From the NCBI GenBank assembly GCA_000934665.2, contig JYFJ02001102.1, positions 1 to 64,000 on the forward strand: a DNA stretch of 64,000 bases, read 5' to 3'. Below the pieces are notes generated by a model. The model was not told the DNA's origin and made no database searches. It saw only the letters and a program-made list of their open reading frames with translations. Shown in pieces: positions 1 to 37,100 of this stretch. The stretch's first letter is position 1, and each line of letters opens with the position of its first letter. The DNA comes from Catajapyx aquilonaris (taxonomy: Eukaryota). Made by a program: the position numbers and the translations under genes.

Positions 1-1049
1 AAATTTTTTTTCTTGTTTCTTATTGGGAACATGTTCAGAAAATGCAATAGGAACTGACATTGCGTTAAAAAATTCTTCTCAGGTCTCAGGAGGATATAGT
101 AATGACAAAGTGAGCCTTACGTAGATGCTACAGTTGACAACTTGGGTTTGTGACAACGAAATACTTTATTGTTGATAATTGTGCTGCTGCATTGATTTTT
201 AAAATGTGATTCACAGATGATAGAGTTTAGAGTGAATTGTTAATTAACACAACATGGTAGTTCGGCATATTATTTTCCTTGCGATTTTCAAATTACTGTC
301 AGGGTAAAAGAGGATAGCAGCAATGATAGATTCTTGCTGATTAGTGAATGAGCTGCACAAGTTGAAATGTTAGCCAAAGGATGAGTGATTACATGCACTT
401 TAGATTTTGCGCAATGGAATGAGCATTTTGACAGCAAGTCCGGATGTATTTTGATGGGCATTATGCATACAATATCAGAGCCGTTATTTTTTGACCAAAG
501 TACTGATCTGATGCAGGTCACATGGGGTTTGCTGAAACTGTAGTTTATTGCATGCAGCACTACTTAACCAATTGGTTCTGGAATTAATACTGTATTTGCA
601 AATGTTATTAATCAATGAAATGAAACATTTTTCAGTTGCTGTGTTTGAGTAATCTGAAACTTAAAAATAACAGTGCCGAATCACTAATAATAATAGACAA
701 CCTACATTTGTTTATCAGAACCAAGGGGGTAAAATGTAGTTGTGCGTGCCTAAACCTGAAGGTAAATCGACGATTGCACTGGAATTATGAATTCCAATTT
801 TTGGTGTAACTTGTGAATGGAGTATAAACCTGAACTCTGTAAATTGCACAATGCTTCTTCTCAAGTATGTTTGGGTAATCGAAAAATATGGTTGCACATC
901 CCAACTTCTGCTCCCACCTGTTGCCACACAAATTACATATGTTCCAAAATTGTTGAGTCTGTACCTCTAATGTGAGTGTGTGTGTTTGCTTGTGTGTTCC
1001 CCCAACTCCCTGCCTTTCCCCTGACCTGTTCGACAATCGACAACATCAG

Positions 1050-10881
<9,832 letters not shown>

Positions 10882-13800: not shown

Positions 13801-14100
13801 TACGCCACCAGTGCTCCTGTGCCCTCCCCAAGTTTCATCGGTGGTTACGTGTCAGCCTTGCCATGCCGTTACAACCTGCTCGTTAAAGTGGTTGTGATAT
13901 AATGATAATTAGCTGGTAACCACTGATGAAAAAGAAGACTGGTTGTTAAAGCGTCCGGTTTACAAAGCGCGATTGCCATTCAAGTGGAATTTTGTACTTC
14001 CTAAATGCAGCCTGCAATTTACCCTCCCCCAAACCAAATGAAGTGGTAAATATTTCAGAGGTTTTTTTAAAAACAATAAATGAACCAAGTAATTCCAACT
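10882..14100 (+). promoter_or_regulatory. Long CBP 3'UTR with candidate poly(A) signals and RBP/miRNA motifs
   Basis: Follows the CBP stop codon; U/A/C homopolymer-rich; AATAAA at 12145-12150 and 14075-14080; five TGTACATA motifs. The true 3' end is inferred, not observed. Confidence 0.6.
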
Positions 14101-14157
14101 GGTTTTATTTACATTATATGGACAGTAACGGATGAGTTCTTTGCGGAGAATCTGGCT

Positions 14158-15084
14158 TCAACTCCGGATCTGCTCAATGACGTACGGAGCTGTAATACGA
14201 AAAAAACAATGCAATTAATTCAAGTACACTGTAGTTAAATGTTAGTTATTTCAGTTATGATTAAACCCAGTTCTTTTTTTGGGGGTCCACCGTGTAATGC
14301 TCACTTTCTCTGTATGTCTCCTTTTGTGGAGATTAATATGTAAGTGTTGCATCATAGATCAGGTAAGATATTTTTTAATACACACAGTATTTACAGTATG
14401 CAGCGCTCGTTATGTTGTCACACGATTTTGTGCTTTCATGAGGCGCAGGAAGCATTGCGCTGAGTCAATAAGTAATATGCATGCACATGTACAGTACACT
14501 GTGCACTGCAAAACATTACATATCAATTTTTAATGCTCTTGCGATGCTCCTGTGATCCTTTTTTGTTGCTCAAATGCATCACAAGAGCATTAAAAATTGA
14601 TGTTCCATAAAAGACTCACCAGTTTAATGTTTTGCGGTTTACACTGTACGAATGATAATATTCAGATATTAAAACTTGCACATCAGAAAATGTTCCGGTT
14701 GGAATAGTACCATCAACGTTCTGTACTAATGCAATGTTAACACTACATGAAGTTTATTATTGCAACTACTGTGCAATCCTGCGTGCCCAAAGGTTAGCGC
14801 TGTGGGTTAGGTCGTACGACGCTAACCTTTTTTGATTTTACTTCCCAGCATACGTCCAGCACAGATAGAGATAGAGATAGACTAAGAAGGGTGGAAATGG
14901 CGACACTTTTAAACTCCCCTCAACAAATTTTAAAGTGCGTCTGAACTCTTTCATGATGTAACTTACTGGCTCTGATGAGAGCGATGAGTAGGAAGAATGT
15001 GGTGAAGTTGCCGATCACGGCCTCCCGCATCTTCCTCTTCTCCATCGTGGGGTCCATGTCGCCCGAGGAGTACATCCGGATCAT
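14158..15084 (-). CDS. TOMM5: Mitochondrial import receptor subunit TOM5 (49 aa)
   Basis: Minus-strand exons 15084-14967 (ATG ... A|gtaagt) and 14189-14158 (ttacag|CT ... TGA) give MIRMYSSGDMDPTMEKRKMREAVIGNFTTFFLLIALIRATPYVIEQIRS. This aligns with metazoan TOM5 ([35 protein letters not shown]). AATAAA on the minus strand at 14109-14104; an acceptor at 15089 implies an upstream non-coding exon. Confidence 0.9.
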
Positions 15085-15538
15085 CTCTCTGCCGGAGGGG
15101 GTCAGAGGTCAGGGAATCAGCAGAAATTGGGAGGGGGAAAAAAATCCAACCCAAATGTGTGGTTCGAATGTTCGGGAAAAAAATAAGAGACGTCAGGCCT
15201 AGCGATCGAAGCGATCGAAAGTGCTGCTGTCTGCTGGTCACTTTCCGAAGCTACGACTAGTCCGGAGGGAAGTTTAAAACACTTATTCTTCAATTACGGA
15301 TTAAATTAAAATGAGTACAATTAATTAACTTGATACAATCGTACGGTCATATATCCGGAAACACCGCGGCATTGCCAGTTCTACCCTATACTTATGCTGG
15401 TTTGTATAACAGAGTCGATGTGGCAACGTTGAAATTCACTTGTATAATCAAAATGGTGATATCATTACATGTGTGAATCACTGTAAAAAGGGGCGTTGAC
15501 GCGTTGTATTATTTTTGCGGTGCACACCACTTTTCAAT

Positions 15539-18078
15539 ATGGATAGTCTAGACCCAGTGCGATCTGGTCCAGGGGCAGCTCCTGGGCAGGCACAAGGGCC
15601 AGCTGATGACCCACCAGCAGCCAATGGTGCTACTTCATGCGTACAAGTAGTGCCAGCGCAGGGAGAACCAACCCAATGTAGTGGCGGGGACGCCTCAGGT
15701 AAGGAGGAGCAGGTAGAATGAAGATAATTTGGAGGTAAATATTGTTCTAACAAGATAATTATTTTGCCCGGCTTTATGAATGCTTACTTTTTTTTTAAAA
15801 AAAAAAAAAGCGTCCCTAACTGGTTAGATGGTTTGGCCGGATTTGGCAGTCTCTGAAACGGATATGGTTCTGCTGGTGAAGATATATATAGTTTTCAAAT
15901 ATTCTACACATTATGCGAGTTCATATAAGCAGATGGTGTACTGCATAATGATTTGAGAAGATTCTATTATAGGTAGGAGAATAATTACATGACTGGAGAT
16001 GCTGGATATGAATGGACTTTTCATGAGATGCATTTTGTTTTGTGACTGATACTCATGAATTTACTTCATGAAACCCTTATTGGCTTATTCTCAGGCATAT
16101 TTTTATAGATACTCGGAATTATATGTGTTGCTCTGCATCGTAATCAAGTTTGGAGGCATGACATCCTGTTCCAATAGTTTACGTATGCAATGAAAATAAT
16201 ATCAGCTACGGTACCTATGTACGAGTAATTGATGGTTTGACCTTCAAGCATTAGGTTTTTTCACTATTATTTAATCGAGATTAGTCTACTTGCATGGCCA
16301 GATTTCCTTAATTCTGGTATGTGCTGGGCAGTGCGTTGCATGTTGGTGGAATTGTTTCAATTGCACTCTCTTTTTATATGTAGCAGAAATTATTGTCCAG
16401 AAAAGCCATGTTCAGTTGCTGTAATACCTCCTTTTCCAGCTGTCCCTCCTTCAGTGCAACCTGCCGTACTGCCGAACAATGAAGAATGTGTTGAACCACG
16501 TGAGAACCTGTCAGGTAGGGGAGGTCGTCATGCTCTGTACCTCAGCATGCTTCTCATCGAGGCAGATTATTTCACACTGGAAGCACTTCACAATTCCTGA
16601 TTTTCCAGTGTGCAGTGCACTTGAGGGGCCTGGAGGAGGACAGCCTAACTCAGGAGGAGGTGGTGGAGTGGTCAGTATGCCTGCAGATCCACAGATGCAG
16701 TTGCGCCGGCAAGAGGTGCTTCAGCGCATGAATCAGAACCAGCTGTTGAGGAGAAGAGTGGCCACCATGCTGATGGGCAGCTGTCCCCCAGTGGCTCCCT
16801 CCATGCCGTCTGGTATGCCGCAGCAGCCATCACCAACTACTCCATCTGCAAGCATGATGAGGGTAGGGCAAGTGGGAGGGGGCAGAGGAGGTGGCCCACC
16901 ACTTCCCCCGCAGATAATGGCACAGCAGGGAATGAGGGGCCCAGATCCAGGTCCTGCCCTGGGACCTCGTCCAGTGGGGATTCCAGGTGGCCCACCTGTT
17001 GTCCCTGGAGCTGCTGCTGCAGCTGCAGCAGGGCAAGCAGGGATTCAACAGGGGGGGATTCCTCAGGCTCTACAGCAACTGCTTCAGGCACTCTGCTCAC
17101 CCAGCTCCCCTCAGCAACAACAGCAAGTCCTACAAATTCTCAGGAGCAATCCTCCACTTATGCAAGCATTCATCAGGCAGCGGCAACAACTGCAGCAGCA
17201 GCAGGAGGAGGAGGTGAGATTAATTTTTTCATGAGCACCTTATGGCTTAGTCCAGGCTATTTCATAAGTATCGTCAACATAACTGATACACACAAAGTAG
17301 CACTTACAGTTAGTATGTTCTATCGCCTGGTGAAGTCCATTTCATTTAGTCATAACTCATAAGGTTGATAATCGGCCTGCACGCCAGAATTTTTTGTCAT
17401 CATTTACATTTAAGCAAGTGCAAGATAAAATATTGGCCTTCGATCAACCTCGAAATTGATTTTTTGGGACACAGTGCGTTTCACTTACAGCAATGATAAT
17501 AATAATTATATAGTCATAGGTAACCCTTGAAATTGTATTGGATTGGCTCTGTTTGCTAACAGTAACTGATCATTTTATGGGGAGAGGTCCATGAAAAGCA
17601 TGTGCTATTTATGTACAGTTGACTCGGGATATAACAATCTCGGTCATAACAGATTCTTGGTAATATCAGACTCAAAAAGCTAGTTCCACGCCACACTTCC
17701 ATAAGGCCCTGCATATTTTGATATCAGTCATAATTATGACAGACCTCGATTATGGCAGACTGATTTAAGCGGCCTTTTGAAGTCTGTTATATCCGTAGTT
17801 TACTGAATAAGAGATGAAAATACAATAGAAATTTGCATATGGTGCAGATAATAACACGATATGAAGAAAGTTCTGATCTTTATAATCTGGTTTTTCCTGT
17901 CCAATAATGCCTGGAAGGGGCTGGTGTGGTTGTGATCATCTAAATTCATGATGTCTTGTTTACTATTATGAAGTAATACTGCACATGATCGTATCTCCGT
18001 TGTCACTAATTCGAGGCATTGCAGCAGGAGATGCAAAGTGGAGGTTGGGCAGGAGCAGACATGCACTGTGAAGAGTAG
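15539..18078 (+). CDS. CBP-derived partial paralogue A (NCBD-containing, HAT-less, degenerate TAZ1); functional gene or young pseudogene
   Basis: Open model: 15539-15698 (ATG; G|gtaagg), optional 16440-16514, 16609-17213 (GAG|gtgaga), 18016-18078 (TAG), giving 275 or 300 aa. Alternative: ORF from ATG 16479 through the TAZ1 remnant. High DNA similarity to CBP 8353-8420, 8024-8190, 9140-9488 and to the CBP intron 9489-9777. Confidence 0.65.
17616..17805. mobile_element. pogo/Tigger-like MITE remnant in an intron of paralogue A
   Basis: TA-CAGTTGACTCGGGATATAACA ... TGTTATATCCGTAGTTTACTG, imperfect TIRs starting CAGT; absent from the homologous CBP intron. Confidence 0.6.
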
Positions 18079-20301
18079 CATGTGGTGCTGTGGATGAAGT
18101 TTCAGCCTTCAACTGTTGTATCCAGTTGGACTGGAGACGCACCTGATGGGCCAGAAGCGGATCACACCAGATATTTATCCAGAGACACTGTTGCATCAAA
18201 GTGTGCTTCACAGCCACTTGTTGTCGCAGGGATTCATTGTTCTACTGCTCATATACTCCCAAGTTTTTGTTGACACGCACATCACATATTGTGGTGCAGC
18301 AAGAGTAAAGAGAACTAATGTGGAGATGAGGAAAGTAATTATTCAGTTGTACTCTACCAGGTTGTTGGATGAATGGAACAGAAGCAATGATGGCTATGAT
18401 CAATGGCTGTGAATTTTTTAAAATAAACAAACCGTGCCATCTGCTTTTTAAATCTTAAGTATTATTTCCTATTATTTCAAATCCACCCTTCCTCCTAATT
18501 GCAGGTTGCAGAATGTGGCAATCATGCATGAAGAAATCCATGTCATTCATTGTTCACTTGCGGTCTGGGATTTAAAGTTACTTATCAATTGTATACCAAT
18601 GACGATGAGCAGAGAAGTTGTTCTACCTGCTTCACTCCAGCATGTAACAATTTCTCTTTTGCATTACTGCAGCAGAGAGAAATTCTGTGATTTAGTTCTA
18701 AAGCGGAAAGAAATGCTGGGTTGTGATCTGAGTTGACACCCATGCAGTTTCTTTTAATTTCTGTAATGGGTAAGTGAATGAATTAAGTGGAGAAGGTATC
18801 GAATGTTTACAATCTTATTTTCAGAAGGAATTTCAAGAAAGTAGGGGTTTATAAGTTATGGTACAGTACATTTCACATTAAAAATTACTTGTTGTTAGTG
18901 TAGTGTTGTAGATTTGTGCTCTATTTCATCCCTTGATGATTCCTGTCAGAAAATTAGACTGACAGTCATATCTAGAGTTTGTTAGATTTTTGAACGCAAC
19001 TTACTGTAGCAAATTCGGTCAAAATAAGGAGTATGGAACAGCACCATACAAATCACCTGCAAAATAATAGTCATCCTGGTATAACATTAATAATGAAACG
19101 TCACTTTGGAGAAAATTAATTTTTCATCATTATTTTAATGTCAATATCATAGATGTTTTCATTGCAGATGATCAAGGAAGTTTCAATCTAGGTGTTCTTG
19201 GTGTCTGAGGTGTTTGCCAGCCTCCATCGCCATGACCATATGCCTGACCATAGATATTAATATCTACGGGCGTGACCTCTTACCCCACTCCAATAATGAC
19301 ATGTTATACTTGTGCTCTTGTGCTGAATGGTTATACTGACTTGAGGGTGTGCGGTGTGGCAATGTTGGAAACATGGATTAGGTATGTAAGGACTTCCCTG
19401 CCTTTATCAACGTTGACAACCTGTATATATTATGGGGGGTGACAAATGTGATGAGCCACGTCTAAATAATATACGATGCAGTTGGCTAGTTTGCATTGCA
19501 ATTAACTGGTAAGTTTAAAAGGGTTCTGCAACCACAATGAAATATTGCATAAATATGCATAATGTAATTATTGCTCACAGTATTCTACATCTTAGACGGC
19601 ATAAGAAAATTATTATGACCCTTTTCGGTCCTGCATAATTTAAGGCTGACCTAATTTTGCATTTTTTTTTGATACTTTCATTAATTAGCATGGAATATAG
19701 TGTGCATTTTAGGCATAGAGCAGGCAGCAAAAGTTGTGAATTATTGTCTCGGTTGGCCCCTTTATTTATAGCAGTCTGCCTTGAAGTCTCACATTTGTCA
19801 CCAATATTTCATGGATCAACTTTTATTGCGACTGATGCAGCATCGATCTCCTCCTTTCAAATTTCGCGCGCACGTTTGTTTTATTTTGCGCTTATACTTT
19901 CGCGACATATTTACTATTTACATGTACCTAATATTTCCCCCCTATTGTTTAATTCACAAAATGCCATGTTTTAAAATGTACGGCGATTTTAGACTAAAAT
20001 ATGGTAATTTTGACTCTAGTTGTTCGGCAGATTCTGGGTAGCTTATACACGGGTCAGGTTGGCAACGCTGCCCCTACGCGTTCGGAGGGAAACGTGATAA
20101 GGGGACCTGGGGAAGTCCCCCGGGTTGGAAATGTCAACGACATGTGGGGGCATGCAAGTATAAGGACCGTGTGATTCATGATCACAGGATAAAAGAAAAG
20201 AGGCGTTGCCCCAACAGGCTCAGGAAGAAGAAGAAGAAGAGTTGGTTGGGCAGGACCGAGAGCAGGACTCGTCCTTTATTGCTGTGCACACCACTTGCAA
20301 T

Positions 20302-23218
20302 ATGGATAGTCAAGGCCCAATGCAATCTGGCCCAGGGGCAGCCCCTGGGCAGGAACAAGAACAGACTTACCCAGGTCTGCGGGGGACTAAGGAATGGCAC
20401 CAGTCAGTGACTCCTGACCTCAGAAATCATCTGGTACACAAACTGTGAGTATCCAGTTTTGGGTAGGAATTTGTAAGAAGATGTATTTTCCTCTGAATAA
20501 TGTCAGTGGTGATTGACAAATTCTGTAAACCACAGGGTACAAGCAATATTTCCAACACCGGACCCTCAGACCATGCAAGACAATCGGATGCACAACCTGG
20601 TGGCTTATGCCAGAAAAGTTGAAGGGGACATGTACGAGATGGCTAACTCGAGGGTGAGTGTTGTGCCCAGGTTGTGCCCCAAGTAGTTAGCATTGCTGCC
20701 AGAATAACAAGATAGTGTAATACTCCTAAGATAATTCCAACTAACATAATGGATGTCAAATGTTATATTGACTAAAGTGAACAGCATGGCATTTCAAATC
20801 TGCAGCTTCCAACTTTAGGGGAACTCACATGACAAAATATCCTGATCACTGTTGAGACTTATACTTGCGCAGCTGTAATTTTTTTGGCCCTCTCGCGACC
20901 AAATCAATATGGTATCTGAAATTAACCCTGGAACCGTGCCATGCCTACGAGTATTACGGCAACCGTGCCGTGGGGTCTTTTCGGACCCCACCATATTTTA
21001 ATTTTTATTAATTATTATATAATACTTTTCGATGTGTTGACTATATTATACAATCATTCTTTGAACAATGCCTAAAAGGATCGCTAATTCAAAAGAAACC
21101 TGCAATTCCTGTTATATAATGTAAAAAAATGGCAGAAGTTCATTGTAATTATCATTTTAATGCATTTTTTCCTTGGGGTCCAAAAAGACCCCACAGCACG
21201 GTTCCAGGGTTAATGTTTTCATGTAGCCTTGCTATGTAATTTGAATTTTTATTTTTCTGTGTATATGAATGTATCAAAAGTGATTCCAGGCAAATTGGTC
21301 AAGTAGTTGCGAGCCTCGCGAATTTGTGTCCATATACTCATGGACAACCCTAGCAACACGTAACTGTGGAGTGGCATGCTTGAAGAGCACTAATGCAGAG
21401 TTGAGGAAAAGAAATATTATTTTCAACTGCAGAGTGGAGCAGGATCAATGAGATATGAGAATGTGTGGGGAGGAGGAAAAAAAGTACTTTTAATACCTGC
21501 TAGCACCAGGTCAGACGCATTAAGCTTTTGTCAGATCAAGTCAGATGTATTGAGCTTGTCAGCTTTTGGTCTGTGGACATTTTTGACAGTCAGACACAAT
21601 CAGATGGAAGAACCATCTTGTGGAAATCAGAAACAATGTGTATGTCTGCAGACAGCCCTAAGATGTGGTTGCAATTACTAGCAGTTGTAGAAAATACCTA
21701 TCAGGCTCTATACTTTTCAAATCTGTCATAACCCTTTGCAAGTGACAAAGGGTAGCATTTATACATGGAGAAGTACAAGCCATTCCTTGTTTAGTTCCGC
21801 CCTAGGTCTTAAAGTTTCTTGTTGATTTAATTTTAAGTGATGGCTGAAGATATTCTCTCACAAGCTTCACTGGAATACTACCAAGTTGTGATTTTTCCTT
21901 GTTTCTCTAGTGTAGAGATATTCATTGATTTAGATCCATCCTGTAGAAGATTGAAAGTGATGTCAGGCTGTGATCTGAGTCGGTTCCAGGTTTCTAGAAT
22001 GAGTAATTGAATGAATTGAGTAAGGTGATGAATATTAAAACTTTATTTTCAGTCGGAGTATTACCACCTGCTGGCAGAGAAGCTTTACAAAATCCAAGCA
22101 GAACTAGGTGAGCTATACAGACGGATATTTGGAATTGGTTCGAGGAGATGTGACCCTACCAACACCTGTGGGCTGCTCTTTGCAGAGGAGAAGAGGCAGA
22201 AGCGAATGGAGATGCAACAGCAGCAGCAGGCACCTCCCCAGCAGCCAACTCAGCTGAGGCCGGTGGTACCCAATGTGTCCTTGCCGCTGAGGGGAGGACC
22301 TATGCTTCCAGCGGGTATGCAGGCAGCCCAAGGTGTGTGGAGCCAGTCCCCTGGTAAGTATACTTTTCAACTCTCAACTTGAAATTATGGGGGAAATTAT
22401 TTTATTGGTGGCTGGAAAGTCATGTAAGGAGAACGCAGGTGCCAAGATCATACAGGAACTACCAGGAACCAGATCCATTTGTATTCGAGTTCAAGTGCAG
22501 ACATGATTGTGCTTATTAGAGAAACTTCAGGCCTCCAGCTGCTGTAAACCTCAGAGATGGGATAACAGGGAAGAAATAACACTCACTCAGAATACACGTA
22601 GAATCTCTCAGCAAATATACTGTATCAGGCACTTCAATGCAATGATCAGTTAGCTCTGCCACTTGATTGCAAAATGTAACAAATAGCGTGGTTTTGATAT
22701 CCACTGTTAAATAATAATTGATGCCTAGAAGGGGTTGGTGTGGTCATGCTTTTTTATTTTTTTATTTTATTTTTACGTTACCCTGTGATAAGGCTGAGCC
22801 TTTTTAGGTGGGGTGGAATACCACCATTCCACTCCATTTTCCTGTATTTACTTCATTCACCGGTGCAAGGAGTCAAGGATGTAGGGTAGGGATAGGGATT
22901 TTTGGGGAGGGAACATGGGTGCAAGGTGCAATGTCGTAGCTATGGATCATGTGCTGTTCCCCAGGAGGTTAGGTTGCCAGACGCCTCCTTGGTGCAGGTC
23001 AGAGACCCTCCTGACGCATGTGAAAGGAGAGTTCCCCAGGCGGGGATTGAACCTGGGGCCTTTCACTCAGCAAGCCGAGACGTTACCATCTCGGCCATCT
23101 ACACCTCCCCTGGTCATGCTTATCTAAACTCATGACATCTTGGTCACTAATACTGAAGTAATACTGAATATGGTGTTTCTGTTGTTACTAATTCAGGCAG
23201 TGCTGCAGGAGCAGCAGC

Positions 23219-23250
<32 letters not shown>

Positions 23251-23403
23251 CAACAACAACCAATGGGCATGAATCCTGGTCAGAGGGAGCTTTGGATGGA
23301 GCACCAACTGCATTGTGGTCAGCCAGCCGAGGTCAGAGAGGAGCACACACCTACCCTGAAGAGTGACATAGTTGTGGGTCAAATGGCAGCCTTAAACTTC
23401 TAA
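20302..23403 (+). CDS. CBP-derived partial paralogue B: stand-alone KIX-domain protein (217 or 228 aa)
   Basis: Exons 20302-20444, 20536-20653, 22053-22107, 22186-22353, then 23201-23403 (polyQ/H frame) or 23197-23366; all GT-AG and phase-consistent with no stops. [86 protein letters not shown]. Confidence 0.82.
20926..21209. mobile_element. piggyBac-type MITE (284 bp) in intron 2 of the KIX gene
   Basis: TTAA on both sides (20922-20925, 21210-21213); perfect 14-bp TIR CCCTGGAACCGTGC; asymmetric subterminal inverted repeat AACCGTGCCGTGGGGTCTTTTCGGACCCCA / TGGGGTCCAAAAAGACCCCACAGCACGGTT. Confidence 0.9.
22752..23110 (-). mobile_element. tRNA-derived SINE in intron 4 of the KIX gene
   Basis: Minus strand begins GGGGAGGTGTAGATGGCCGAGATGG (box A) ... 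GGTTCAATCCC (box B); A-rich tail; 11-bp TSD TGGTCATGCTT at 22741-22751 and 23111-23121. Confidence 0.88.
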
Positions 23404-25165
23404 TGCTCCACATTTGATCTCCTGGTTGGACAAAGTGATTTTCTCCTTCATTGACTTTTCTCTGGAGTGTTTTTATGCCCTTTCCCTTCCAAATACGATA
23501 CATCTACATAATAATGCAGTCACTTAATAAAGTCAAGCCAATAAAAGAAAGGTTCCATGAAATACCCATTGTCATAAACTGTATAATTATAACTGCATAC
23601 AGCTGCTACACATTGTATTACTATTTTACGAAAGATATCAGTGCAGGCCTAACACTCCCTGATGTTAATCATTGGTTGCTGCTCTTCCAGTGAACCTCTT
23701 TAAACGAGATGCTGTTATATTCATATTGGACTGGCGGCACCTGAAGGACTGACATTAATGCATTGTCATAAGATATTTATCCAGAGTGCATTTTTTGGTC
23801 TACCTAAACAGGTACAGTAGGCTATAGTAGGAATCAGAATATTATGAACTTTGAAAAAATTGTAGAGCTGTAAATTGCACCAGTGCAAGGGTTTGGGCTG
23901 GTCATAGTAGGAGGGGGTCAGATAATTCAGACCCTTCCTAATCTACCCTCCTTGGGCTTATATCAGGAGGGGTAGTGGGCCTTCTAAACTAATTCGTTAA
24001 CTTTTTTGAAGACGCACCCTTTTGCATTTTTGACAGCAAATATGAATTCTAAGGTGTCGAAAACATATATTTTCATACCTGATTCATACCAGCCATGTCA
24101 AAAGTAGATCTAGCACCCACGTCAACCCAAGGTGATAAATGAGGAACAGAAAGAGTTGACCCCCTGAAGTAGCCACGCCTCTGTGGGTGGGACGAAGGTT
24201 CCCTTCTTGGTTCGGTCTAGTCACGCCAGAGGGAAACTAATCGCAACACTTCCCTGCTCCATCAGAGGTTCAGTCACGGCAAAGGACTTGTCACATGCTC
24301 TCAAGTTATTAGCTCTTGCTTGTAGCACATAATATTGTGGAGCAGCAACATGGCGACGAGAAAAGTAATTGTTCAGTAGCAAATAAATGGAACAGGAGCA
24401 ATGATTATAGCAATGATCAATGGTTGTAATTAATTTTAATAAAGAAACCAATATATTCCATCTGCTTAATAAATTCAAGCATTATTTCATATTATCCACC
24501 CTTACTCCTTGCATGTCACATTATGTTTCAATCATGCATGTCATTCCTTGCTCACTTGCAGTATGTACAGTATTTACTTATAATAAGTTATTTATAAATT
24601 TCATACCAATTATGACTAAGAGACTCAGTCTTTTAAACGTACCCCGCTATTTTGTAGCTAATATTATTAGTAGCCGCTTTGAAGTCACTGCTATCTGCCT
24701 CAGCCGTTGTGCTTGTTTCGGTCCGACCGAGTATAGGGAATGATTAGCGGGTTAGCCAACCACGAAAGTGTCATCAGCAACTGGAGGACACTTCTAGACC
24801 CTCTGAGAGTCTGAGTGCAGCAGGGGGGACGACAGACCGGGGGTTCGATGCTGGGGACAAGCCTCGTCTGGCCGTCGACAGATCACCCGGCCGGCAGCGG
24901 CACCATCAGGATGGACGGCAGCGCTGTAGCAGCGCCAGACGGCCGGCAATGTTGATCGTTCCATCGCCATCAGCTGCAGCAGAAGGAGGGGATCACGTGC
25001 GGGACATCTGGACGATCACTAGTCCCCACTCGAGGTGCCTGCATTTGTCACTTGACTCTAATCACACTACAGGATGTAGTACACTCAAGAGTTGTACGTC
25101 TTCTCCTTCAACCGTCCGCATTGTTCCATTCTAGGAATGTCCAGTGACCTGGCCAAATCAGGGGG

Positions 25166-28100
25166 ATGGGCAGCCAACCGGTGCTGTTTGAGCGCTGGTC
25201 CGGTTCAGTGGCGGACCCAAAGTTCGACTCGGAGATCCTCGAGGGGCAGTTCCGCAGGTCCACGGCTCCGCAGATACGCCTGCGTCTGAGGGTGGCCCTG
25301 CTCTACGTCCTCATCTCCTCCCTGGCATGGACCCTCTTCTTTTCATCCGCACACGACTCCGCCCCAGGGATGGCCCTCGGGTCCTTCTCCCTGGCGGCTC
25401 TCTCCGGGGCGGCCTCTGTCGTCACCAGGACAGCGTTCTACAAGCGGAGGGTCTATGTCGTCGGAGGAGTGGCGTCAGGAGTGCTCTGTCTTGCCACGCT
25501 GCTTGGGTTCATGGGAAGAGGTATTGCCTGCCTATCCAAATCGCATCAGTACAGTTAATGCACAAGAGTTGACAAACTCCCACTCTGAGAATATGGAAGT
25601 GTGCTTTTGTCGCATTTTTATTTATGGATCTTAGTAATCTCTCTCTGCACATCTGTGTGCACAGTTCTGTGCACATTGATCAGTTTGAGTTGCAAGGCCA
25701 TCTGTAAAAGGGAGTCTTTGTCACTCTTCCATGAATTAGCATGTGCATGTTAATGCATTTGTGAGACATGGTAAATAGACTCGTTTAAACGTGCACGTGT
25801 ACACCTTCAGCTGTTCCGTGAATCACTTGTGACCTTCACAGTATTTGCGTGTAACATGTAGTACATTTGTTTTCACTGTTGCAGATTACACATTTATTAA
25901 GTAATAGCCAGAAGCTTGTCTCTTGATGATGTAGGGATGAATTTGATGATAAACTTCGGGTTACTGAAACTTCCTGCATCGTCATCAGATAAAATGTGAC
26001 TGCAAGATGATTTAAATCACTGAATTCTTGGCATATTTGCAGAATATCCTAGTGGAGTAACGCATTTGCAATGGAATAATTTACAAGGACAGTATTATTA
26101 ACTTCACAGAAGTAACTTTATTGCCACAAGCTCTATGCGAGTGATGTCATGATATTGTAAGACTTTATCTTTTCCGCAGATGGCAGCCCTGTATCGGTGA
26201 GCCTGACTGGCTTGTCATCAATGGCCATTCAGGTGCTGCTTCTGAATTACACGGTGATGCCGCTTCCCCTGTACGCATGTGTGGTCATCAACATCGTGTA
26301 CTCCATTGCTTTTGAGATCTTGGCCGCCCTGGTTGGGGAAGGTTGCGGTGGCAGCGGTGGAGTGATATTTGCCAGGTGTCTGTTTCACCTGTGCGTGCAT
26401 GTTATCGGTCTGCACATACTGGTCAAATCCCAGGTGCGGATGAGAAGCATGTTCATGAAGGTGGGACAGTCGCTGCTTGTTAGATGCCAACTGGAGATGG
26501 AGAAGCATCTGAAGGAGAAAATGATCCATTCGGTCAGTTCAAAGGTAGAAGGAAATTTCCAGAGCATTGCGTAACATGCAGCATTTAATTTTAACAGGTG
26601 ATGCCGCCTAAAGTAGCAGAATGGCTTATGTCTGAAGCAGTTGCCGAAGAGAGTGTGACAATGGGTGAAGATGGGGAACGTTCAGAGTGCTCTTTTGGCC
26701 TTCGAAAGGTGTCATCACCACGTTCTTCTAACACTGCAGCCACCTTGAATGCAGTGGGCAAAGGTGATGACCTCCGCTCCCTCTTCCGGCCATTCAACAT
26801 GCACCGGATGGAATCCGTCTCCATTCTCTTTGCGGACATTGTGGGCTTCACTGGAATGAGCTCCAACAAGACAGCAGAGCAGCTGGTGACCCTCTTAAAT
26901 GACCTGTTTGGAAGGTTTGATGTCCTCTGCGGACGCCATGGATGTGAGAAGATCAGCACTCTTGGGGACTGCTACTATTGTGTTTCCGGTTGTCCCGAGC
27001 CACGTCCTGACCATGCCCTCTGCTGTGTTGAGATGGGACTTGCCATGATAGGGGCTATTGCTCTGTTTGACCAGGAGCGTAAAGAGTCTGTGGACATGCG
27101 AGTTGGTGTCCACACAGGGACTGTCCTCTGTGGAATTGTAGGGACCAAGAGGTTTAAGTTTGATGTTTGGTCTAATGATGTCACACTAGCGAACAGAATG
27201 GAATCCACTGGACGTCCTGGGAAGGTGCATGTGTCGGAGAAGACCCTGGCCTTCCTGCAGAATCAGTACTATGTGCAGCCTGCTGAACCTGTTCAAGGGG
27301 TGAGTTTTCAAATGCATGTGTAATATTTTTAATTTTTGATGATTGCCATAGTATTGATATACCTGTGTCTCCAATTGCTAGCTGAAGACTTACTTTATAC
27401 TTGGCCGCCGAGCTGAGATGGTGACCCAAGCCCTGGCTGTAGAGCCGTGGCTGTGCCCCCCTTCCCCTCTGCAACAATCGCCAGTGCGGCACCATCCATG
27501 CCCTACGCAGGGGCTGCCCCTAAGTAACCTGCCCCATATGGATGAGAAGAAGTCCTCCTCACTACCCTCTGTGTTTGATCCATCGAAGGGTGCAGGGGTG
27601 AGCATTCGCGATTTGGAAGAAATGGCCATCAAGAAGAATCCGAAGAAGAGACGGGAATCACGTCGGAAAGGGCTGGCAACGCTTCAGAGGTTGAAGAGGG
27701 CATCGGAGCGTCGGCAGCCATTACTAGACAGGGGGGCTAATGGAATTACTAACGGGGATTCCTTCCGGAGTCGCAGCAAGACCATGGTGCATGGGGCAAG
27801 CGAAGGGGTCAACCTTGGACAGCTGTCGCCTGGGAGTCTAAGCTTGAGCCATGGCTCAATCCAGCAACAGATTTGTGCCATGAATGGGATTGCCCCAGAA
27901 TGTGGGGGGCACGCAGGCAGCCGGGTGAGCAGCTACTACACTGCCAGCCACTCCACCATAAATGATCCAACTTCCACCAATGGTGAGTTGCATTTTTAAA
28001 ACCCTTAACATGTCCCTTCACTTACCTCGGAAGTCTGCGCAGTTGGTGGAACATTTGTTTCCAACTCAAGTTGATACCTATGACTTTAGAGTGACAAAAT

Positions 28101-29777
28101 TGACACCGCATTTGCGTCATTAATCAGTATTATTCTATTTAGCAAAATTTTAATACCTTTTTGTACCCACTAGATGTGTCCCCGGTAGCTACGAGTGGTG
28201 GGAGCGGTGGTGGACCAGAAGCGCAAATTCCACTGAATGAGAAACTAGCCCAGTCGCTTCAGCTGCGCAAACAGTCTGACATGCAGATGATTCGTTGCAT
28301 CCAGGACGATTCTTCCCACCGCCAGTATTTTTTGCGTCCTCCACTGCATCTGGCCACCCTTTTCTTCCTGGACAAGGATATGGAGAGGGCCTACCGACAG
28401 TGTGCCCACTGCTACGACGAGGGGCCGCCAACCACTCTGACGTCCCCCAAAGTCAACACTATAGTGGATGTTGGCGTAGCTGCAGTGGTGGTTGCGCTTC
28501 TCTGCATAGCCATGTTTGCATCCTTCCCACCTTCCATTCCATATGCAGTGATCTTCCCACTGGCAACGCTGACTGTTTCTGCCGCACTCTACACTGTCAT
28601 CAGGCATTCCCGGTTACTGACTGGCAAACAGTCATGGGTAATACGGCATGTGACAGGTGGAATAGTTGTTTCCATACCTGCTATAATAACACTTTCAAAT
28701 GCGGGTTGCACTGATCTAGCGACATTGAGCACTGCTGCTCTGGTCTCGCTGGTTCACTTTTGCGATTTCTCCCAGCTGGGATGCTGGGCCCGGACAGGGC
28801 TGGCTGCCCTGGCTGGTGCGGCCACAGTGGGAATCTGTGTCCCATGCCCTGCTCCAGCATGGCAGCATTGGGAGCTGGGTGTCTGCATCTTGCTGACCCT
28901 GATTTTAGTAGGATTCCTTAACCGCGAATTTGAGATGGGATTTAGACTTGGATTTCACTGCGCCAAGGTGGCCGCTCAGGATCGTAAAAGGGTGCAGACC
29001 TTGAAAGACCAAGCTGACTGGCTGCTTCATAACATAATCCCAAGGCACGTGGCAGAGCGACTTAAGACGGAGGCCAAGTACTCACAGAATCACCGCCGGG
29101 TTGGAATCGTGTTTGCAAGTATAGTCAACTTCAACGAGATGTACGATGAGACATACCAGGGCGGCAAGGAATATTTGAGGGTACTGAACGAGCTGATTGG
29201 CGACTTTGATGAGCTGCTGGACTTACCGCAATATCATAATGTGGAGAAGATCAAAACTATTGGCAGCACTTTTATGGCTGCCTCAGGACTCAACCCTCAA
29301 GCCAGGGAGACCAACGAGCATCCAGACCAGCATCTTTTTGAGTTGGTTGACTTCGCGTTGGAGATGCAGGTGGGTGTACGACCCTGTATAAGGATTCAAA
29401 GTACTGTGCTAATATCTTAAGTTCTTAACCTGTTGTTCTGACAGGATGTGATAGCCGAATTCAACCGTGACCTGATAGAATTCAACCTGATTCTGCGTGT
29501 TGGTTTGAACTTTGGTGACGTAACGGCAGGTGTGATTGGCACGACCAAGCTTTATTATGACATCTGGGGAGATGCGGTGAACATTTCCAGCAGGATGGAT
29601 ACTACTGGTGTTCAAGGAAGGATTCAGGTCAGCCAAGCCTGTGTTCCCGTACTCCAGGACAGGTACGAGCTGGAGGAGAGAGGGGACATATACGTCAAAG
29701 GGAAGGATCACATGTTGGTCTATCTGCTCAACAGTAGGAAGAAGGAAGAAGTTAGCCAAGATAGAAAGGAGGTCTAA
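25166..29777 (+). CDS. ADCY9: Transmembrane adenylyl cyclase type 9 (Ac13E-like), about 1180 aa; start codon uncertain
   Basis: Exons 25166-25520, 26180-26532, 26598-27299, 27382-27982, 28174-29369, 29445-29777, phase-consistent. Two hydrophobic TM clusters; C1a SILFADIVGFT, EKISTLGDCYYCVSGCPEPRPDHA, RFKFDVWSNDV; C2a FASIVNF, KIKTIGSTFMAASGL, GTTKLYYDIWGDAVNISSRMDTTG are AC9-type signatures. Possible extra 5' exon 24949-25034 spliced to 25162. Confidence 0.93.
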
Positions 29778-32700
29778 TGCTAGTCAGAAACATAATGGTT
29801 TTATTTGCAGGGGCGATATCATGCAGTTACCTGTACTACAGTAGTACCCATGTTATCAGTTTATGGGTCAGTTAGCATAAGGTGAAGTGAGAGGTTCATA
29901 CTCCAATGAAATGGGCATGGAGAGACGAAAAGGCCATGTGTTTCTTGGCACAGTAACAAAGAGTTGCTCTTTGAAATGAACCTAAATCCATTTAGATTGA
30001 CTTGTTGGGAATTGCACTCAACTTTTGGGAAATATCAATACCAATCCTTGGGGGTACTGTAATTTTTACGAAGGTCCCGTTGAGTGTAGTTGGGGTTGAT
30101 CAGCAGTGTCAAATTCTAGAGTACGTTTCGAATAATTATTTCTCTGGAAGTGGATTAAAACTTCCTTCAAAAATTGCACTTTAAGATAGTGGCTTTTAAA
30201 TGTTTTATTTAGGTAGACGAATCACCAGAAGGTCAATTTTTAAAGAATTATCCTCAACTCTCAGAAAATAATTGCTGTTACATATTGACAAACATTTTAT
30301 GGCCTTTTAATATATTAATACTTTCATGCATTTAAAATGCATTCCGTAGACGCTTGAAATATGTGATTGAAATATATTGAAAGCTCATGAGTCATACATA
30401 AAGGGTATTGACCATCCAGCAATACCCGCAATACTACTGGAGGATTGAAACTCATGTTCAAAATGCGTAATATTTTTATGGAGAGTTGGGGCTTTACTTG
30501 AAAGTCAATGCACGATGATGTTAATGTGAAAATGTTCGATTCCTTATATCTACGCTTGGAATTGCGTGAGAGAGAATAATTGGAACAACATCTTGAGTAC
30601 GTACATTTTGCCACTACTTATACATATTGATCAGAAGGTATTCTTGAAACGCACAAGTCCATTTCAGACCAAAAAAGATCGTGTGAATGTGACGGAACAG
30701 CAAAGACGTCAATCATTTACCAAAATGCTAGTCGTAATTTCCCATGTGCATGTGGTTTGTGGGATAAGATGTAATGAAACTAAGCACTTGGGAAGTCATC
30801 ATAATTCTTCTCTTTCCACATTTGAAGTGAATGAGTGCCTAAGTTAAAAAAAACAACTCTGTTCCTATACCATATAATATTGTTAACGAAACCTGTTGTT
30901 GAATTTTATTCACCAAACTATTTTTCTTGAGCACTGTTTCTATCACTATTCTCTTGTGCTATCCTCTGTGCCTTTTAAAACACACCAAAAAAAAAGCTGA
31001 ATGTTGGTTTGAATGTAGGAGCAAAATCTCAAGTTAATGACTTTTAAACATTGTCAAAACTCTTGTGAACAACAAAATATTCTCAAACATGGGGACTTTT
31101 TTTTTCTACTCATTGGGTCCAATATGGGAACCTCATGCTGATATATACATTGTTTTTTTCTTCGTGCTTTTATAATAATCAGGTTGTGAGTCGATCAATT
31201 CAAGTGCGAGTCCATTGTATTGTAAGAGATACTTATTTGCAACATTGGGTATTGGTTTTAAATAAGCAAAAGTAGAGATTAATGTCGAAAGTTATATTTC
31301 GAAGCAATTATTTTTTTTTGTACATTTTGTTTTGTCTGAGGGGCTTCTCGTGTGAGTTGTGATAATTGTGCAGGTGATAGTTTAATGTTGTTACACTATA
31401 TTTTAGTTTATATTATTGAGAGATTATATAAGAGACAGATTTTAGTCATTTTTAAAATGTCACTATTATTTTATCCCAGATCAAAGTTTATTAGTTCCTT
31501 CTACGTACTCGTTTACTCCTGCAGAAGTAACAAGCATGATTTTAATTATTTCTGTCGATAGAACGTCTGCTTTTTGTTGTTGAGAATTTGCTTTAAGAGT
31601 TGATCATTTTACGTTCCCTTTGCTGGTTTTGCTGAGGAACTGTACATGATCTCAACTTGGATCATCTTTATGAAGCTATGAAATTGCTGAAATGTTTGGC
31701 CTGCGGTGAAGGACACTGGAAAATATCAGAGTGAAAGTGAAAAGTTGTGTGAATGTAAATAGGGAAATTGTTGGATTGAAAAGCATGGTACGTGTTGGTG
31801 TAAGTTTAATTGCCTCATTGACACATGAATCTGGGGTGAAATAGCCTTTGGTGAATTTTGACACATCGTCAGCAGTGCTTCTTAGTTGTTCACAGACCGT
31901 CACAAGCTGCATTTCTCACAGCAGTTGCAGGCAATGACTAGGGAAGGGGAAATAAACGCAGTAAATAATTTGTTGCCACTTTCGGGATCCAGATCATGGC
32001 TTCCTACCTTGATATTCTTTCCTTCAGTTTCTCATGTCATTGTGTCCTGCTGCGAGATATGTAGATAATGCCATTCCTGCAACACCTCTTCGTCCATATT
32101 GTGGAATTAAATCGATAATGTATCCCTCCATAACAGTAGTTACCATGAAGAGTGGGAGGAATGATGTGAATCAACAAGATTGAATAAAGAACGATTAGAA
32201 TATGACTGTGTACTCCAATGTTGTCACACATGGGGACATGTATTTCTTTTCGCTTAAAGTTGCTTGAATACAAGTTGCCTTCCTCCTCCCGCTGTTCAAA
32301 CTATTGTTCGTCATATCTAGTCCGCTGTGTGATTTACATGTTTTAGATTTACAAATAGCAACATGCAAGTTGTGCAGTTTTGTGTGCATAATACCTCATC
32401 AAATATTACGCAAATTGTACAAAGCAATCAATATTGACTGGTTCAGATGTTGGCTCAGATTTAATTATGTCACGGAGTAATTTTAGGGAGATGAATGACC
32501 TGCAAAGTACATGCCATGATGATTTCCAGTGTCTCGACCCAAGGAATATATTTTTATCCTCTTCCCATGTATTTCTTCCAAGTGCATTGCACTACTGCTT
32601 TTCTGATAAGCCTTATGAACAACCGTGTGGCAGATTTTGTTACGATGGGCATTGGTGTTTGCTGGTTTTCAAAAAAAAAAAAAAAAAGGTGAAATTACAA

Positions 32701-33397: not shown

Positions 33398-33857
33398 GCC
33401 TGACAGCCAAAAACTTTTACCGCCAACACATATTTTCCTTTATCGCCAATTTCCCTGACAACCAATTCCCTTTACAGCCAAACTATTTTACCGCCAATTC
33501 CCTGACATCCAATTTACTTTGCAGTCAAAATCTTGTACCGCAAATTTCCTTTACAGCCAAAACCCACCCTGACAGCCAAAAACTTCTACTGCCAATTCCC
33601 TGATATCCCATTTACTTTACAGCCAATTCCCTTTACAGCCAAACCCCTGACAGCCAAAATCTTTTACCGCCAATTCCTGTACAGCCCAACTATTTTACCG
33701 CCAAATTCCCTGACAGCCAATTTACTTTACAGCCAAAATCTTGTACCGCCAATTTCCTTTACAGCCAAAACCCGCCCTGACAGCCAAAATCTTTTACTGC
33801 CAATTCCCTGATATCCAATTTACTTCACAGCCAAAACCCCTGACAGCCAAAATGCCA
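33398..33857. repeat. Minisatellite of ~15-16 bp units ending in (A/C)GCCAA with a 208-bp higher-order duplication
   Basis: Repeated CCTGACAGCCAA / TTTACAGCCAA / TTTACCGCCAA; block 33511-33626 recurs at 33719-33834. Confidence 0.9.
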
Positions 33858-34123: not shown

Positions 34124-37100
34124 ATGGAGGTTTTGGAGAAGCTGAAGGAGACGGGCTGGTGCGTTCCAATCAATCTGAAATCCTCTGTACTTACACCTCC
34201 GTCGGTTCTCACCTGATTGCACAGCCCGCAATTGGGGCGTCGGGCTTGAGGCCACGGATAGTTGGGGGCAATTGGCCCACGTTCCATACTCTAGGCCTTG
34301 CTTTCTTGTTGTTGTTGTTGCTGGCAGTGTACTTACAAGGAACACTGGTTATATCATTAAGGTTAATTAGTAGTGCCAGTACATGTTGGTTGCTCTTGCA
34401 GGTTCCTGAGTGAAGAGGGCTTGGCGCAGTGCAGAGAAGGAGTGCACGGGAATGACGTTAGAGCGATCATACGTAACGCGCTGGATGTAAGTGAATGGCT
34501 GGAATATTGGTGGTAGTTGACATTTGTGTTAGCAAGAGCCTGAAATGGCTGATGACATTTATATTTATGTCAAACAGCATAATCCTATACAAAATTCGGA
34601 ACAAAAAGAGGACAGATTTTTATGTCGTACCAAATTTGAATAGTTTCAATGCTAAGAAGTAGCCTACAATTGTTTCATAGTACTGTTAAAATTTGAGGGC
34701 AACACTGTGGCGGAGTGGTTAGCGCCACAGCCTTCCACCTCTAAGGTCCCGAGTTCAATCCCCGGATCGGACGGAGGATACTTATGTGGATAGAGTTTCA
34801 ATGGGTTCTCTCCGTGTTCGCGTGGGTTTTCTCGGGGTTCTCCCGTTTCCTCCCACTATGAAAATCCATCACAGAAAAGGCAATGTTAAAGACGGGTAAT
34901 TAAAAAGATGATCCCCTAAAAAGCCCATGGAGGCTTATCACAGGGTATCCATTATTAATATTATTATTATTACTGTTAAAATTTGGCCCATTGAATCATA
35001 AAATTATTAATATTTAAAAAAATACATTTGGGAATACCTAATTTCGTCCAATTTGGCAACATTGATGATCATGTCAGTTTCAAAATAATCGCAACTGCAG
35101 TAAAGGCTGCATAGTTACATTACATAACCTACTCAGAGGAAAGGTGCACTGCATTTTTGTTAGTTGCATTGTGAATGAGACAATTCATTTACGAGTTGGG
35201 AAGATGTGATTTTGTTGGGCAGTGTTCATAATGAAATGAATCTTTTCAGACTGACCTGCGAGAGATAGGAACAACTTCTTTTCCAGACGATGTTTCTCGA
35301 GCCAAAGGCGCAACGGTTTGTGATGTTTTCGTACCTTTTTTCTTTGCATGCATTTTGTAATTGGCTTGTTGAATCCTCATTATGCTTGATTTTAGGTGGA
35401 AGGTCCGCTGGTGTTCCAGATCCAGAAGTTACGCAATGTAGGTGCTCCTAAGGCTAACGAGGAGTCAGGTTCGGCTCCTCGTATGCTGAGGTTGATCCTG
35501 ACTGATGGGAAACTCAGTTTCAATGCATTAGAGATGGTGACACTCCCTCGGCTAAGCCTGAACACACCGCCAGGAACTAAAGTGTGCCTGAATGGGTCTG
35601 TGCCTGTATCGAATGGGTTTCTTCTATTGCGGCCATCATGCATCACTGTGCTCGGTGGGAATGTTGCTGCCCTAGTTGAAAAATGGGACGTCCATAGGGT
35701 ATGTCTGTACTGATATTTTTCTTTGGTTGATATGCATATTTTTTACTGCAAATCATTTAGTAATTGAACATTGATTGCCTTATTTTTGCAGAGTCTTGCC
35801 AAACACAACCGTGGTTTGGGTCTGGGCTTGGAAGGGGGCCCACCACCTTGGATCCCATTTGGACAGAAGCGCATGTCATCCAATCCTAATGACAAGAACT
35901 TCAAGTCCCTGGGTGGTCTCCTAGGCTCAGATAAGGAGGGTCGCGAGGACTCGGAGTTTGAGGCTCAACGTAAAGATGCAATTGCAGAGGCAGCGAGGGG
36001 TGGATCCAAGAAAGTATTTGGTGGAGGCAACAAGCACATGCTGGATCGCAGCGTGCAACAAGTGGTGGACGCTGGATTCAGTGTGGATCAGGCCCAGGCT
36101 GCTCTGGCTAGGTCTAATAGGGAGGTGGATCGAGCCATCCGTAACCTCCAAAGGGTCACTGTGTCTGACTCTTCAGGAGAAGGGTTCAGGAAGCGCGAAC
36201 CACGATCTAAGGGGAAGGAAGCAGCAGGTGGAGACCGCAGGAAGCGGAATGATGATTCAGATGAGGTGCAGTCGAGGCCGTCTGGACCAGTTAGTCTGTT
36301 TGCTTTCTTGGAAGACAAACTGCCTGCCAGTGCTGCTGCTGCTGCAAGTGTGACACCGAAGGCTGAGCAGGACAACAAGTGGTACAACCCAGAAGAATCC
36401 CGCCCGAGGCGATATGACAACCGGGGCGAGAATCGTGATAACCGCTACGAGAACCGTGAGAGCCGTTATGAGAACCGGGACAGCCGCAGCAACCGGGGTG
36501 GGTTTCGACGTCAGCCGCAGAGGTTTCAAGACCAGTCTGATGGTCACAGCCGGGGACGAAACTATGATGACCACGACCACAATTACAACAGGGGTCGTCC
36601 TAATCAGCCACAGCCTGAGAACCAGAAGCCCCCACGGTTCCAGAACCGAAACAATAACAACAACAACAGCAGCACCACAAACAGCAGCTGGCCTTCAGGT
36701 AGTTTTGTACAGGGTTCCTGGAGCAACAACAGTTATGAGGAGAAACGAGATACGCAGCCACCACGTGTTGAACCCCAGCATGATCTCTGGGGCAGCATGG
36801 ATGGTTGGCCGCCACGAAGCGAGTCTCAACCTCAACCCCAACCGCAGCCGCCCCCACAACAGCAGCCCCGCAATTTCCCCCCGCCATTTTCTCAACCTTC
36901 GATGGGTTTCCAATCCTCGAACACATCGGTTGCAGCTGCCCTGCAATCATATGGAGGGTACTCGTGGCCCAGCGGATTGGATACCTCTACCCCTCCCCCG
37001 CAGCCATCGCAGCCATCGTATATCCAGCAGCATCAACCACCACCACAACAACAACAGCACCAGCACCAGCAGCAACAACAGCAGCAGCACCAGCAGCACC

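Follow-up and report, generated by a model that had tools for sequence, protein, structure and literature searches.

A cluster of rearranged partial CBP duplicates beside the parent gene in Catajapyx aquilonaris

Partial copies of CBP downstream of the parent gene

The DNA analysed here, referred to below as the window, comprises positions 1 to 64,000 (forward strand) of contig JYFJ02001102.1 from the assembly of Catajapyx aquilonaris (GCA_000934665.2). Positions 1-10881 carry the 3' half of a CBP/p300 gene on the plus strand, in which a bromodomain exon at about 2256 is followed by the HAT, ZZ, TAZ2 and NCBD regions, and downstream of the CBP end at 10881 the interval from 15.4 to 24.7 kb is filled with partial, DNA-level copies of the same gene. 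Two units can be recognized within this interval, Unit A (15539-18078) and Unit B (20302-23366), the first of which retains an NCBD and the second a KIX domain, as the initial annotation of the sequence had stated. The copies form a cluster of unprocessed partial duplicates that stem from the CBP gene next to them and have been rearranged.

The copied pieces derive from the 3' coding exons of the parent (7772-10881, plus strand), which were delimited by translation, Pfam-type matches and self-BLAST. They include an exon for TAZ2 plus a linker (7772-8493), the NCBD exon (9074-9488) and a Q-rich last exon (9778-10881) with its stop codon at 10879-10881. A 3' untranslated region (UTR) of about 3 kb follows, reaching to about 14.1 kb, with an AATAAA signal at 14075. 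All 11 parental splice donors have G at +5. Among the proteins fetched for comparison, insect and springtail CBPs share 89-92% identity with the HAT exon and chelicerate CBPs 84-86%, which marks the genome as arthropod-like. The parental KIX and TAZ1 exons sit upstream of window position 1, and the non-coding copies of the locus therefore serve below as the yardstick for Unit B.

Self-BLAST of the window returned duplicated pairs with E-values from 1e-14 to 1e-112. CBP 8022-8192 matches 16699-16869 (90.6%), CBP 8344-8419 matches 16622-16700 (82%), and CBP 9139-9684, a piece that spans both exon and intron, matches 16867-17415 (75.5%). The last intron of CBP and the start of its last exon were copied into both units, as had been claimed, with CBP 9674-9789 matching 17908-18027 in Unit A (81%) and CBP 9692-9806 matching 23111-23225 in Unit B (84%). 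Copies of CBP exons and introns are thus 75-91% identical to their source, have been reordered and carry deletions. The introns of CBP have been copied or kept at their CBP positions, which argues for duplication at the DNA level and not for a retrocopy. The origin proposed in the initial annotation, partial duplication followed by rearrangement, is borne out by these intron positions together with the reordered pieces and the internal deletions. A processed retrocopy was considered and is ruled out by the copies of parental introns (9489-9684 and 9674-9777) and by KIX introns that stand at conserved positions.

Both units begin with a homologous leader sequence, and the report of a homologous first coding exon holds. 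The segment 15512-15596 (plus strand), which consists of 27 nucleotides (nt) 5' of the Unit A start codon (ATG 15539) and the first 58 nt after it, is 87% identical over 85 nt to 20276-20359 (E 2e-21), where the start codon of Unit B is found (ATG 20302). The homologous 3' flank with AATAAA, also reported previously, needs a different interpretation. The similarity itself is real, since 18369-18600 matches 24383-24610 at 69%, and AATAAA signals occur in the two copies at 18422 and 24438. With sensitive BLAST settings, a third copy of the flank was found inside intron 2 of Unit B, where 21354-21936 is 64-72% identical to 18280-18698, and the homology extends to the acceptor of KIX exon 3. The three copies are sequence downstream of Unit A (18280-18824), the 3' part of Unit B intron 2 (21354-22052) and an intron-2-like segment downstream of Unit B (24340-24615), all on the plus strand. 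Since the third copy runs up to the KIX exon 3 acceptor, the flank appears to be a fragment of a KIX intron that has been copied three times, and not a 3' end in its own right. Two AATAAA signals, at 23526 and 23540, lie closer to Unit B. The possibility that relic KIX exons lie beside the Unit A flank was examined and rejected, the homology ending at the acceptor. The arrangement of the copies makes the locus a mosaic, and not a neat pair of units.

The absence of a bromodomain, HAT, ZZ or TAZ2 from both units, noted previously, was confirmed by tblastn with arthropod CBPs of 1990 and 1012 amino acids (aa), which gave no match to any of these domains beyond 11 kb at E<=1, and found only TAZ1 and KIX pieces there. 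Likewise, Pfam searches of the unit exons returned only KIX, Creb_binding and a partial zf-TAZ, and neither unit has the domain make-up of a KAT3 acetyltransferase. Searches of the 11-26 kb interval for tRNA genes and tRNA/SINE elements (ARAGORN) and for known RNA families (Rfam) gave no hits.

Gene structures of Unit B and Unit A

Unit B can be read as five exons with a total of 217 codons, separated by four strong GT-AG introns at CBP positions. Its donors are GTGAGT, GTGAGT, GTGAGC and GTAAGT, with G at +5 in all four, and the acceptors are preceded by pyrimidine tracts. Exon 1 (20302-20444) encodes the leader and KIX helix 1, exon 2 (20536-20653) the middle of the domain, and exon 3 (22053-22107) KIX helix 3, in which Ile657 and Lys662 are replaced by Leu and Ala (see below). 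Next, where CBP has a conserved intron, comes a mini-intron of 78 nt (22108-22185), which preserves the frame, has no stop codon and, if retained, would lengthen the predicted product from 217 to 243 aa. Exon 4 (22186-22353) completes KIX and continues into a Q/P-rich stretch, and its GTAAGT donor leaves the frame in phase 1. The 3' end of the last intron (23111-23196) is the copy of the CBP last intron mentioned above, and the last exon (23197-23366, stop codon 23364-23366) corresponds to the start of the CBP last exon; with entry in phase 1 it is translated in the +1 frame, which gives a novel P/T-rich tail. All of these features are on the plus strand.

The KIX domain (PF02172) of Unit B is complete from end to end, with profile positions 3-21, 23-61 and 62-80 of 81 on three successive exons. 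The exon scores are 19.6, 60.5 and 20.2 bits, so that the middle exon alone exceeds the 27-bit cut-off. The introns interrupt the coding sequence after the residues HKL, ANSR and KEL, and the KIX open reading frames (ORFs) of other arthropods enter an intron at the same points, which indicates that Unit B is a copy made at the DNA level. As modelled, a small protein of 217 aa with KIX as its single interaction domain, derived from a multidomain regulator, Unit B would conform to the definition of a microProtein.

Two further details of Unit B were noted. A PNVSLPL motif follows KIX in exon 4 (22262-22300), and in the arthropod CBPs P0148, P0187 and P0210 it is found upstream of KIX; its position may reflect a further shuffle within exon 4, or a second occurrence in the CBP of this lineage. 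Within the last intron, about 370 nt (22740-23110) have no counterpart in the copies of this intron in the parent and in Unit A; this insertion resembles a mobile element, and ARAGORN and Rfam found nothing in it.

The structure of Unit A is more disordered. Exon 2 (16440-17213, 258 codons), with matches to Creb_binding (67 bits) and to part of zf-TAZ (33 bits), is built from CBP pieces in a new order and lacks the parental intron 8494-9073. A remnant of the second half of TAZ1 (16455-16625) is followed by copies of CBP 8344-8419 (at 16622-16700), of CBP 8022-8192 (at 16699-16869) and of the NCBD exon, CBP 9139-9488 (at 16867-17213). The last intron (17214-18015) also consists of separate pieces, 17214-17415 from CBP 9489-9684 and 17908-18015 from CBP 9674-9777, with an insertion between them. 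The last exon (18016-18078; 20 codons and a stop) joins two pieces of the CBP last exon, one of which, 18022-18054, is 88% identical to 9988-10020. These features are again on the plus strand. The NCBD (PF09030, Creb_binding) is well preserved, scoring 67 bits against a cut-off of 26.6 and covering profile positions 44-107 of 110, and its core is identical to that of the parent at 37 of 43 residues, with the hydrophobic core kept.

The TAZ1 of Unit A has not fared so well. The initial annotation described a partition of modules, NCBD in Unit A and KIX in Unit B, and those assignments stand, but Unit A also carries both halves of TAZ1 (15606-15677 and 16455-16625), which the annotation had overlooked, so that the modules are not cleanly divided between the units. 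The second half is 62% identical to CBP P0187 (tblastn, E 7e-15), with two zinc-binding Cys residues changed to Phe, and its middle segment fits the TAZ1 consensus only in a shifted frame, suggesting a compensated pair of frameshifts; zf-TAZ (PF02135) is matched only at profile positions 21-72 (33 bits), and is not a complete domain in one frame. The first-half remnant (15606-15677, plus strand) is shifted to +1 against the frame of ATG 15539 and contains an in-frame stop. In tblastn with the arthropod CBPs P0187 and P0047, it shows 58-62% identity over 24 aa at E 0.09-0.13, a weak match when taken alone; the call is based on its position directly 5' of the second half and on a donor at 15699 that is in phase 0 in its frame.

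This donor is central to the coding status of Unit A. The consensus site CAG|GTAAGG at 15699 is in phase 1 relative to ATG 15539 and leads to a stop at codon 106, and no acceptor was found that would rescue this frame without a stop. The frame stays open only if exon 1 (15539-15712, plus strand) is extended by 14 nt to CAG|GTAGAA at 15713, a weak donor in phase 0. The latter lacks G at +5, which is present in all 17 other donors examined in the locus (11 in the parent, four in Unit B, and GTAAGG 15699 and GTGAGA 17214 in Unit A). As GTAAGG at 15699 is in phase 0 in the old TAZ1 frame, it represents the ancestral splice site. The earlier statement that both units can be spliced at canonical sites into uninterrupted ORFs is accordingly sound for the 217 codons of Unit B, while for Unit A it depends on the weak donor.

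Sequence conservation and the status of the two units

The KIX of Unit B was compared with 46 unique complete KIX sequences. It differs from the nearest arthropod KIX at 5 of 84 residues (79/84 identical), and three of its residues are absent from all 46 sequences, namely Asn for Lys/Arg in column 35, Leu for Ile in column 69, and Ala for Lys in column 74. For column 69 the pattern used to select the 46 sequences itself imposed Ile or Val, but among sequences chosen on the helix 1 pattern alone the residue is Ile in all 28 that reach helix 3. Alignment to PDB chain 1sb0_A, in which Tyr658 and Lys662 are positions 73 and 77, identifies columns 69 and 74 as Ile657 and Lys662. Tyr658 is kept in Unit B, and Lys662, found at this site in 44 of the 46 unique sequences, is replaced by Ala. 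Tyr658 and Lys662 are described as contacting phospho-Ser133 of CREB (PMC2289845), and the Lys662 to Ala replacement would predict a KIX that depends less strongly on the CREB phosphoserine.

The non-coding copies within the locus, which are 64-84% identical, served as the neutral yardstick for Unit B. Pairwise divergence (K) is about 0.18-0.35 between the last-intron copies and about 0.45 between the intron-2 copies. If the branch leading to Unit B is 0.08-0.11 substitutions per site long, KIX should have accumulated 15-21 non-synonymous changes, and at most 5-6 are seen (P(<=6) 0.006 to 0.0001); with a branch of 0.05, significance is lost (P=0.15). Differences at only 5 of 84 residues, next to non-coding copies that are 64-84% identical, point to purifying selection on the Unit B KIX, unless gene conversion has been recent. 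Such a conversion, with the parent as donor, would make the test invalid.

For Unit A the initial annotation had suggested a comparison of the NCBD exon with the parent by the ratio (omega) of non-synonymous (dN) to synonymous (dS) divergence. Over 189 codons the Nei-Gojobori method gave dN 0.092, dS 0.282 and omega 0.33, with values of 0.27 for the NCBD exon and 0.52 for the linker. In the NCBD core, the parent agrees with other animals at all 6 differences, which places the amino acid changes on the Unit A branch, and when half of the synonymous changes are assigned to that branch the odds ratio is 0.74 (Fisher p=0.32), so that neutrality is not rejected. The 202 copied codons would have been kept free of stops under neutrality with a probability of 8-24%. 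Most probably, Unit A is a copy in decay, whether as a pseudogene or as a non-coding transcript, and not a dependable coding gene.

Partial duplication of CBP and rearrangement beside the parent account for both units. Unit B is most likely a maintained small gene for a 217-aa protein with KIX as its only folded module, which could dock KIX-binding activators without providing acetyltransferase, bromodomain, TAZ or NCBD surfaces. Docking through KIX without the enzyme or the other surfaces would make it a competitor of full-length CBP, or an adaptor beside it. Unit A would be a decaying copy in which a recognizable NCBD remains. The proposal in the initial annotation that the units encode decoy or modulator microproteins is thus plausible for Unit B, given its intact model and conserved KIX, and unlikely for Unit A, with its dead TAZ1 exons, its need for a weak donor and a branch pattern indistinguishable from neutral. 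The DNA itself shows the duplication, the anatomy, the quality of the splice sites and the pattern of conservation; expression, ligand binding and competition with CBP are inferred. On balance, we slightly favor a functional Unit B; the joint reading, in which Unit B is a maintained KIX-only gene, Unit A a decaying copy and both are rearranged CBP duplicates, is put forward tentatively and falls somewhat short of an even chance.

A number of observations weigh against this joint reading, and many of them would be expected if both units were non-functional, unprocessed pseudogenes and Unit B looked intact only because its KIX exons were young or recently converted. This is a doubtful but serious alternative. 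Recent gene conversion, or a KIX copy younger than the rest, would explain the conservation of Unit B without selection, and the 5 changes over about 194 non-synonymous sites amount to only 0.026 per site. The neutral yardsticks are either short (about 110 nt of intron sequence) or near the detection limit of BLAST. The tail of Unit B is a frame-shifted reading of the CBP last exon, outside the parental frame, and two of the three unusual KIX residues (Lys662 to Ala and Ile657 to Leu) are at near-invariant positions and could equally represent early decay. In the mosaic of shuffled pieces that makes up the locus, one intron fragment occurs at least three times, and the decay of Unit A is clear. 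Among the sequencing runs that match the stretch, no RNA run is listed (four are of DNA type, with 0.85-0.88 of sampled words shared, and one is of unknown kind, with 0.31), and no orthologue of either unit was found in the protein sets searched, from which the proteome of the source organism is apparently absent, so that these negatives carry little weight. Near-identical proteins were likewise not found for Unit A exon 2 (among proteins of near length), the parent exon (among longer proteins, up to 2000 aa) or Unit B exon 1 (among longer proteins), and Unit A exon 2 had no match at E<1e-30 among 1.84 billion representatives, the best being 106 bits at 46% identity, none with the architecture of Unit A. 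What speaks for Unit B against pure debris is its ATG, four strong pairs of splice sites and stop-free frame of 217 codons, a KIX conserved far above the neighboring intron copies, and the intron fragment abutting KIX exon 3, which is only 64-72% identical to its paralogous copies and so marks the segment as old. In addition, ordinary unprocessed pseudogenes show the features seen in Unit A, an out-of-frame exon with a stop, lost zinc ligands and a near-neutral pattern on its own branch, and such hallmarks are absent from the KIX exons of Unit B.

Other observations weigh against the joint reading from the opposite side, by suggesting that Unit A may be more than a relic. Its pairwise omega against the parent is well below 1 (0.33; N vs S, p=1e-5), all four indels in its copied coding parts are multiples of three, and the hydrophobic core of its NCBD is kept, so that past or present constraint is possible. 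If both units were expressed, as NCBD-bearing and KIX-bearing microproteins modulating CBP-dependent transcription, these features would find an explanation, canonical GT-AG routes to open frames can be drawn for each, and annotations of other species include NCBD-only proteins, such as one of 181 aa with two NCBDs in Fopius arisanus. We consider this improbable: the Unit A frame requires the donor without G at +5 that lies 14 nt beyond a consensus donor, the strong donor would give an early stop in the mRNA, the exon 1 reading overprints a dead TAZ1 half, and all 6 changes in the NCBD core are on the Unit A side, with a branch test that fails to reject neutrality. Lower still is the chance of a different architecture, such as one long transcript of Units A and B, alternative 3' exons of CBP, or a non-coding RNA from a divergent promoter shared with a minus-strand gene at about 15.0 kb. 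All pieces do lie on the CBP strand, the frame 5' of ATG 20302 is open for at least 34 codons, and the first exon of the minus-strand gene is about 450 nt from the Unit A ATG, but CBP has its own stop, 3' UTR and AATAAA, and a separate ATG context, a terminal exon and an AATAAA close by can be assigned to each unit. Least probable of all is an assembly artefact, in which mis-joined or collapsed 5' pieces of CBP were placed downstream. The assembly data apparently date from about 2014, and the strongly matching runs may be its source reads; nevertheless, positions 1-55999 contain no N (the sole N in the window is at 56000), the copies are 9-25% diverged from the parent and have unit-specific deletions, fusions and frameshifts that haplotype or ordering errors would not create, and four runs contain 85-88% of sampled words, though these are not independent of the assembly.

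Known counterparts and neighboring features

No described equivalent had been known to the initial annotation, a view that the literature and public annotations do not bear out. In Caenorhabditis elegans, according to PMC10320766, cbp-2 (first zinc finger and KIX) and cbp-3 (first zinc finger only) are shorter homologues of cbp-1 located at most 160 kb away; they are probably partial duplications, were once classed as pseudogenes, and RNA interference against each alters the activity of reporter promoters. A preprint describes CBP-3 as a truncated paralogue without HAT and bromodomain that was observed as a tagged protein (bioRxiv 10.64898/2026.08.14.744963). The CBP paralogues of planarians are reported to keep most domains (10.1101/2020.09.08.287045). 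Like cbp-2 and cbp-3, Units A and B are HAT-less partial duplicates close to the parent, recognized here from the DNA only, and so they add to an already described kind. They differ in that the nematode genes keep N-terminal modules only, while Unit B has KIX alone and Unit A has NCBD and a dead TAZ1, and the nematode genes, in a different phylum, are of independent origin.

HAT-less CBP fragments are also annotated in several arthropods, including Fopius arisanus (XP_011306475.1, 181 aa, two NCBDs), Aphidius gifuensis (XP_044018379.1, two NCBDs and TAZ), Homalodisca vitripennis (XP_046672049.1, two TAZ and KIX), Phthorimaea operculella (KAI5641887.1, with TAZ, KIX and NCBD each matched twice), Planococcus citri (P0015 and P0023, with precomputed Pfam Creb_binding matches), Bicyclus and others. 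These are short database predictions with interaction modules only, and none is orthologous to Unit A. More widely, short HAT-less TAZ1/KIX/NCBD proteins (P0208-P0218, P0015, P0023 and P0022) were seen in insects, a tick, a spider, a mussel, a bryozoan and echinoderms. Partial duplication of CBP seems to be recurrent and little studied, and our literature searches turned up no study of arthropod CBP duplicates that retain KIX or NCBD alone.

MicroProteins, and the plant KIX-only adaptors KIX8 and KIX9, retain one interaction domain of a larger regulator family and sequester or bridge its partners. Unit B resembles them in its single-domain make-up and is unrelated to them by descent. Isolated KIX or NCBD fragments have been used experimentally as competitors of CBP; these engineered fragments have the same domain content as the proposed products of the units, and a natural gene would in addition need to be expressed and selected.

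A more specific scenario, unlikely as a whole though worth stating, is that the KIX-only protein of Unit B is expressed and under selection, arose independently of nematode cbp-2 and cbp-3, lost part of the phospho-CREB switch through Lys662 to Ala, and constitutively competes for or bridges Myb/MLL-type ligands, with Unit A as its dying sister, descended like Unit B from one ancestral TAZ1-KIX-NCBD mini-gene. Unit B would then serve an arthropod lineage as a natural, built-in brake on the recruitment of CBP. If expressed, it would represent a second independent case, after cbp-2 and cbp-3, in which a catalytically empty CBP fragment has been kept, and a natural KIX variant at the phosphoserine contact that offers a handle on the titration of coactivator docking. 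Without expression of Unit B, the locus would be an instructive case of gene-like duplication debris, and similar short 'CBP-like' annotation models merit equal caution.

Several other features of the window were recorded. Between Unit A and the CBP 3' UTR there is a small minus-strand gene (14100-15250), whose first coding exon (about 14961-15080) is a Met-initiated ORF with a hydrophobic stretch, a GTAAGT donor and no Pfam match, and the 5' end of the gene is close enough to the Unit A ATG (about 450 nt) that a shared divergent promoter is possible. Downstream of the duplicates, an adenylate cyclase gene (25000-30000, plus strand) encodes two Guanylate_cyc catalytic domains and Adcy_cons_dom, and the placement of CBP beside an adenylate cyclase resembles the vertebrate CREBBP-ADCY9 neighborhood. 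Beyond it is a gene for a UBA-containing protein with a Q/N-rich tail (35400-37250, plus strand). Self-BLAST also revealed a block of tandem repeats at 33399-33853, with copies about 100-210 nt apart and 71-91% identical, and a palindrome at 50228-50358, where 131 nt match their own reverse complement at 90%.

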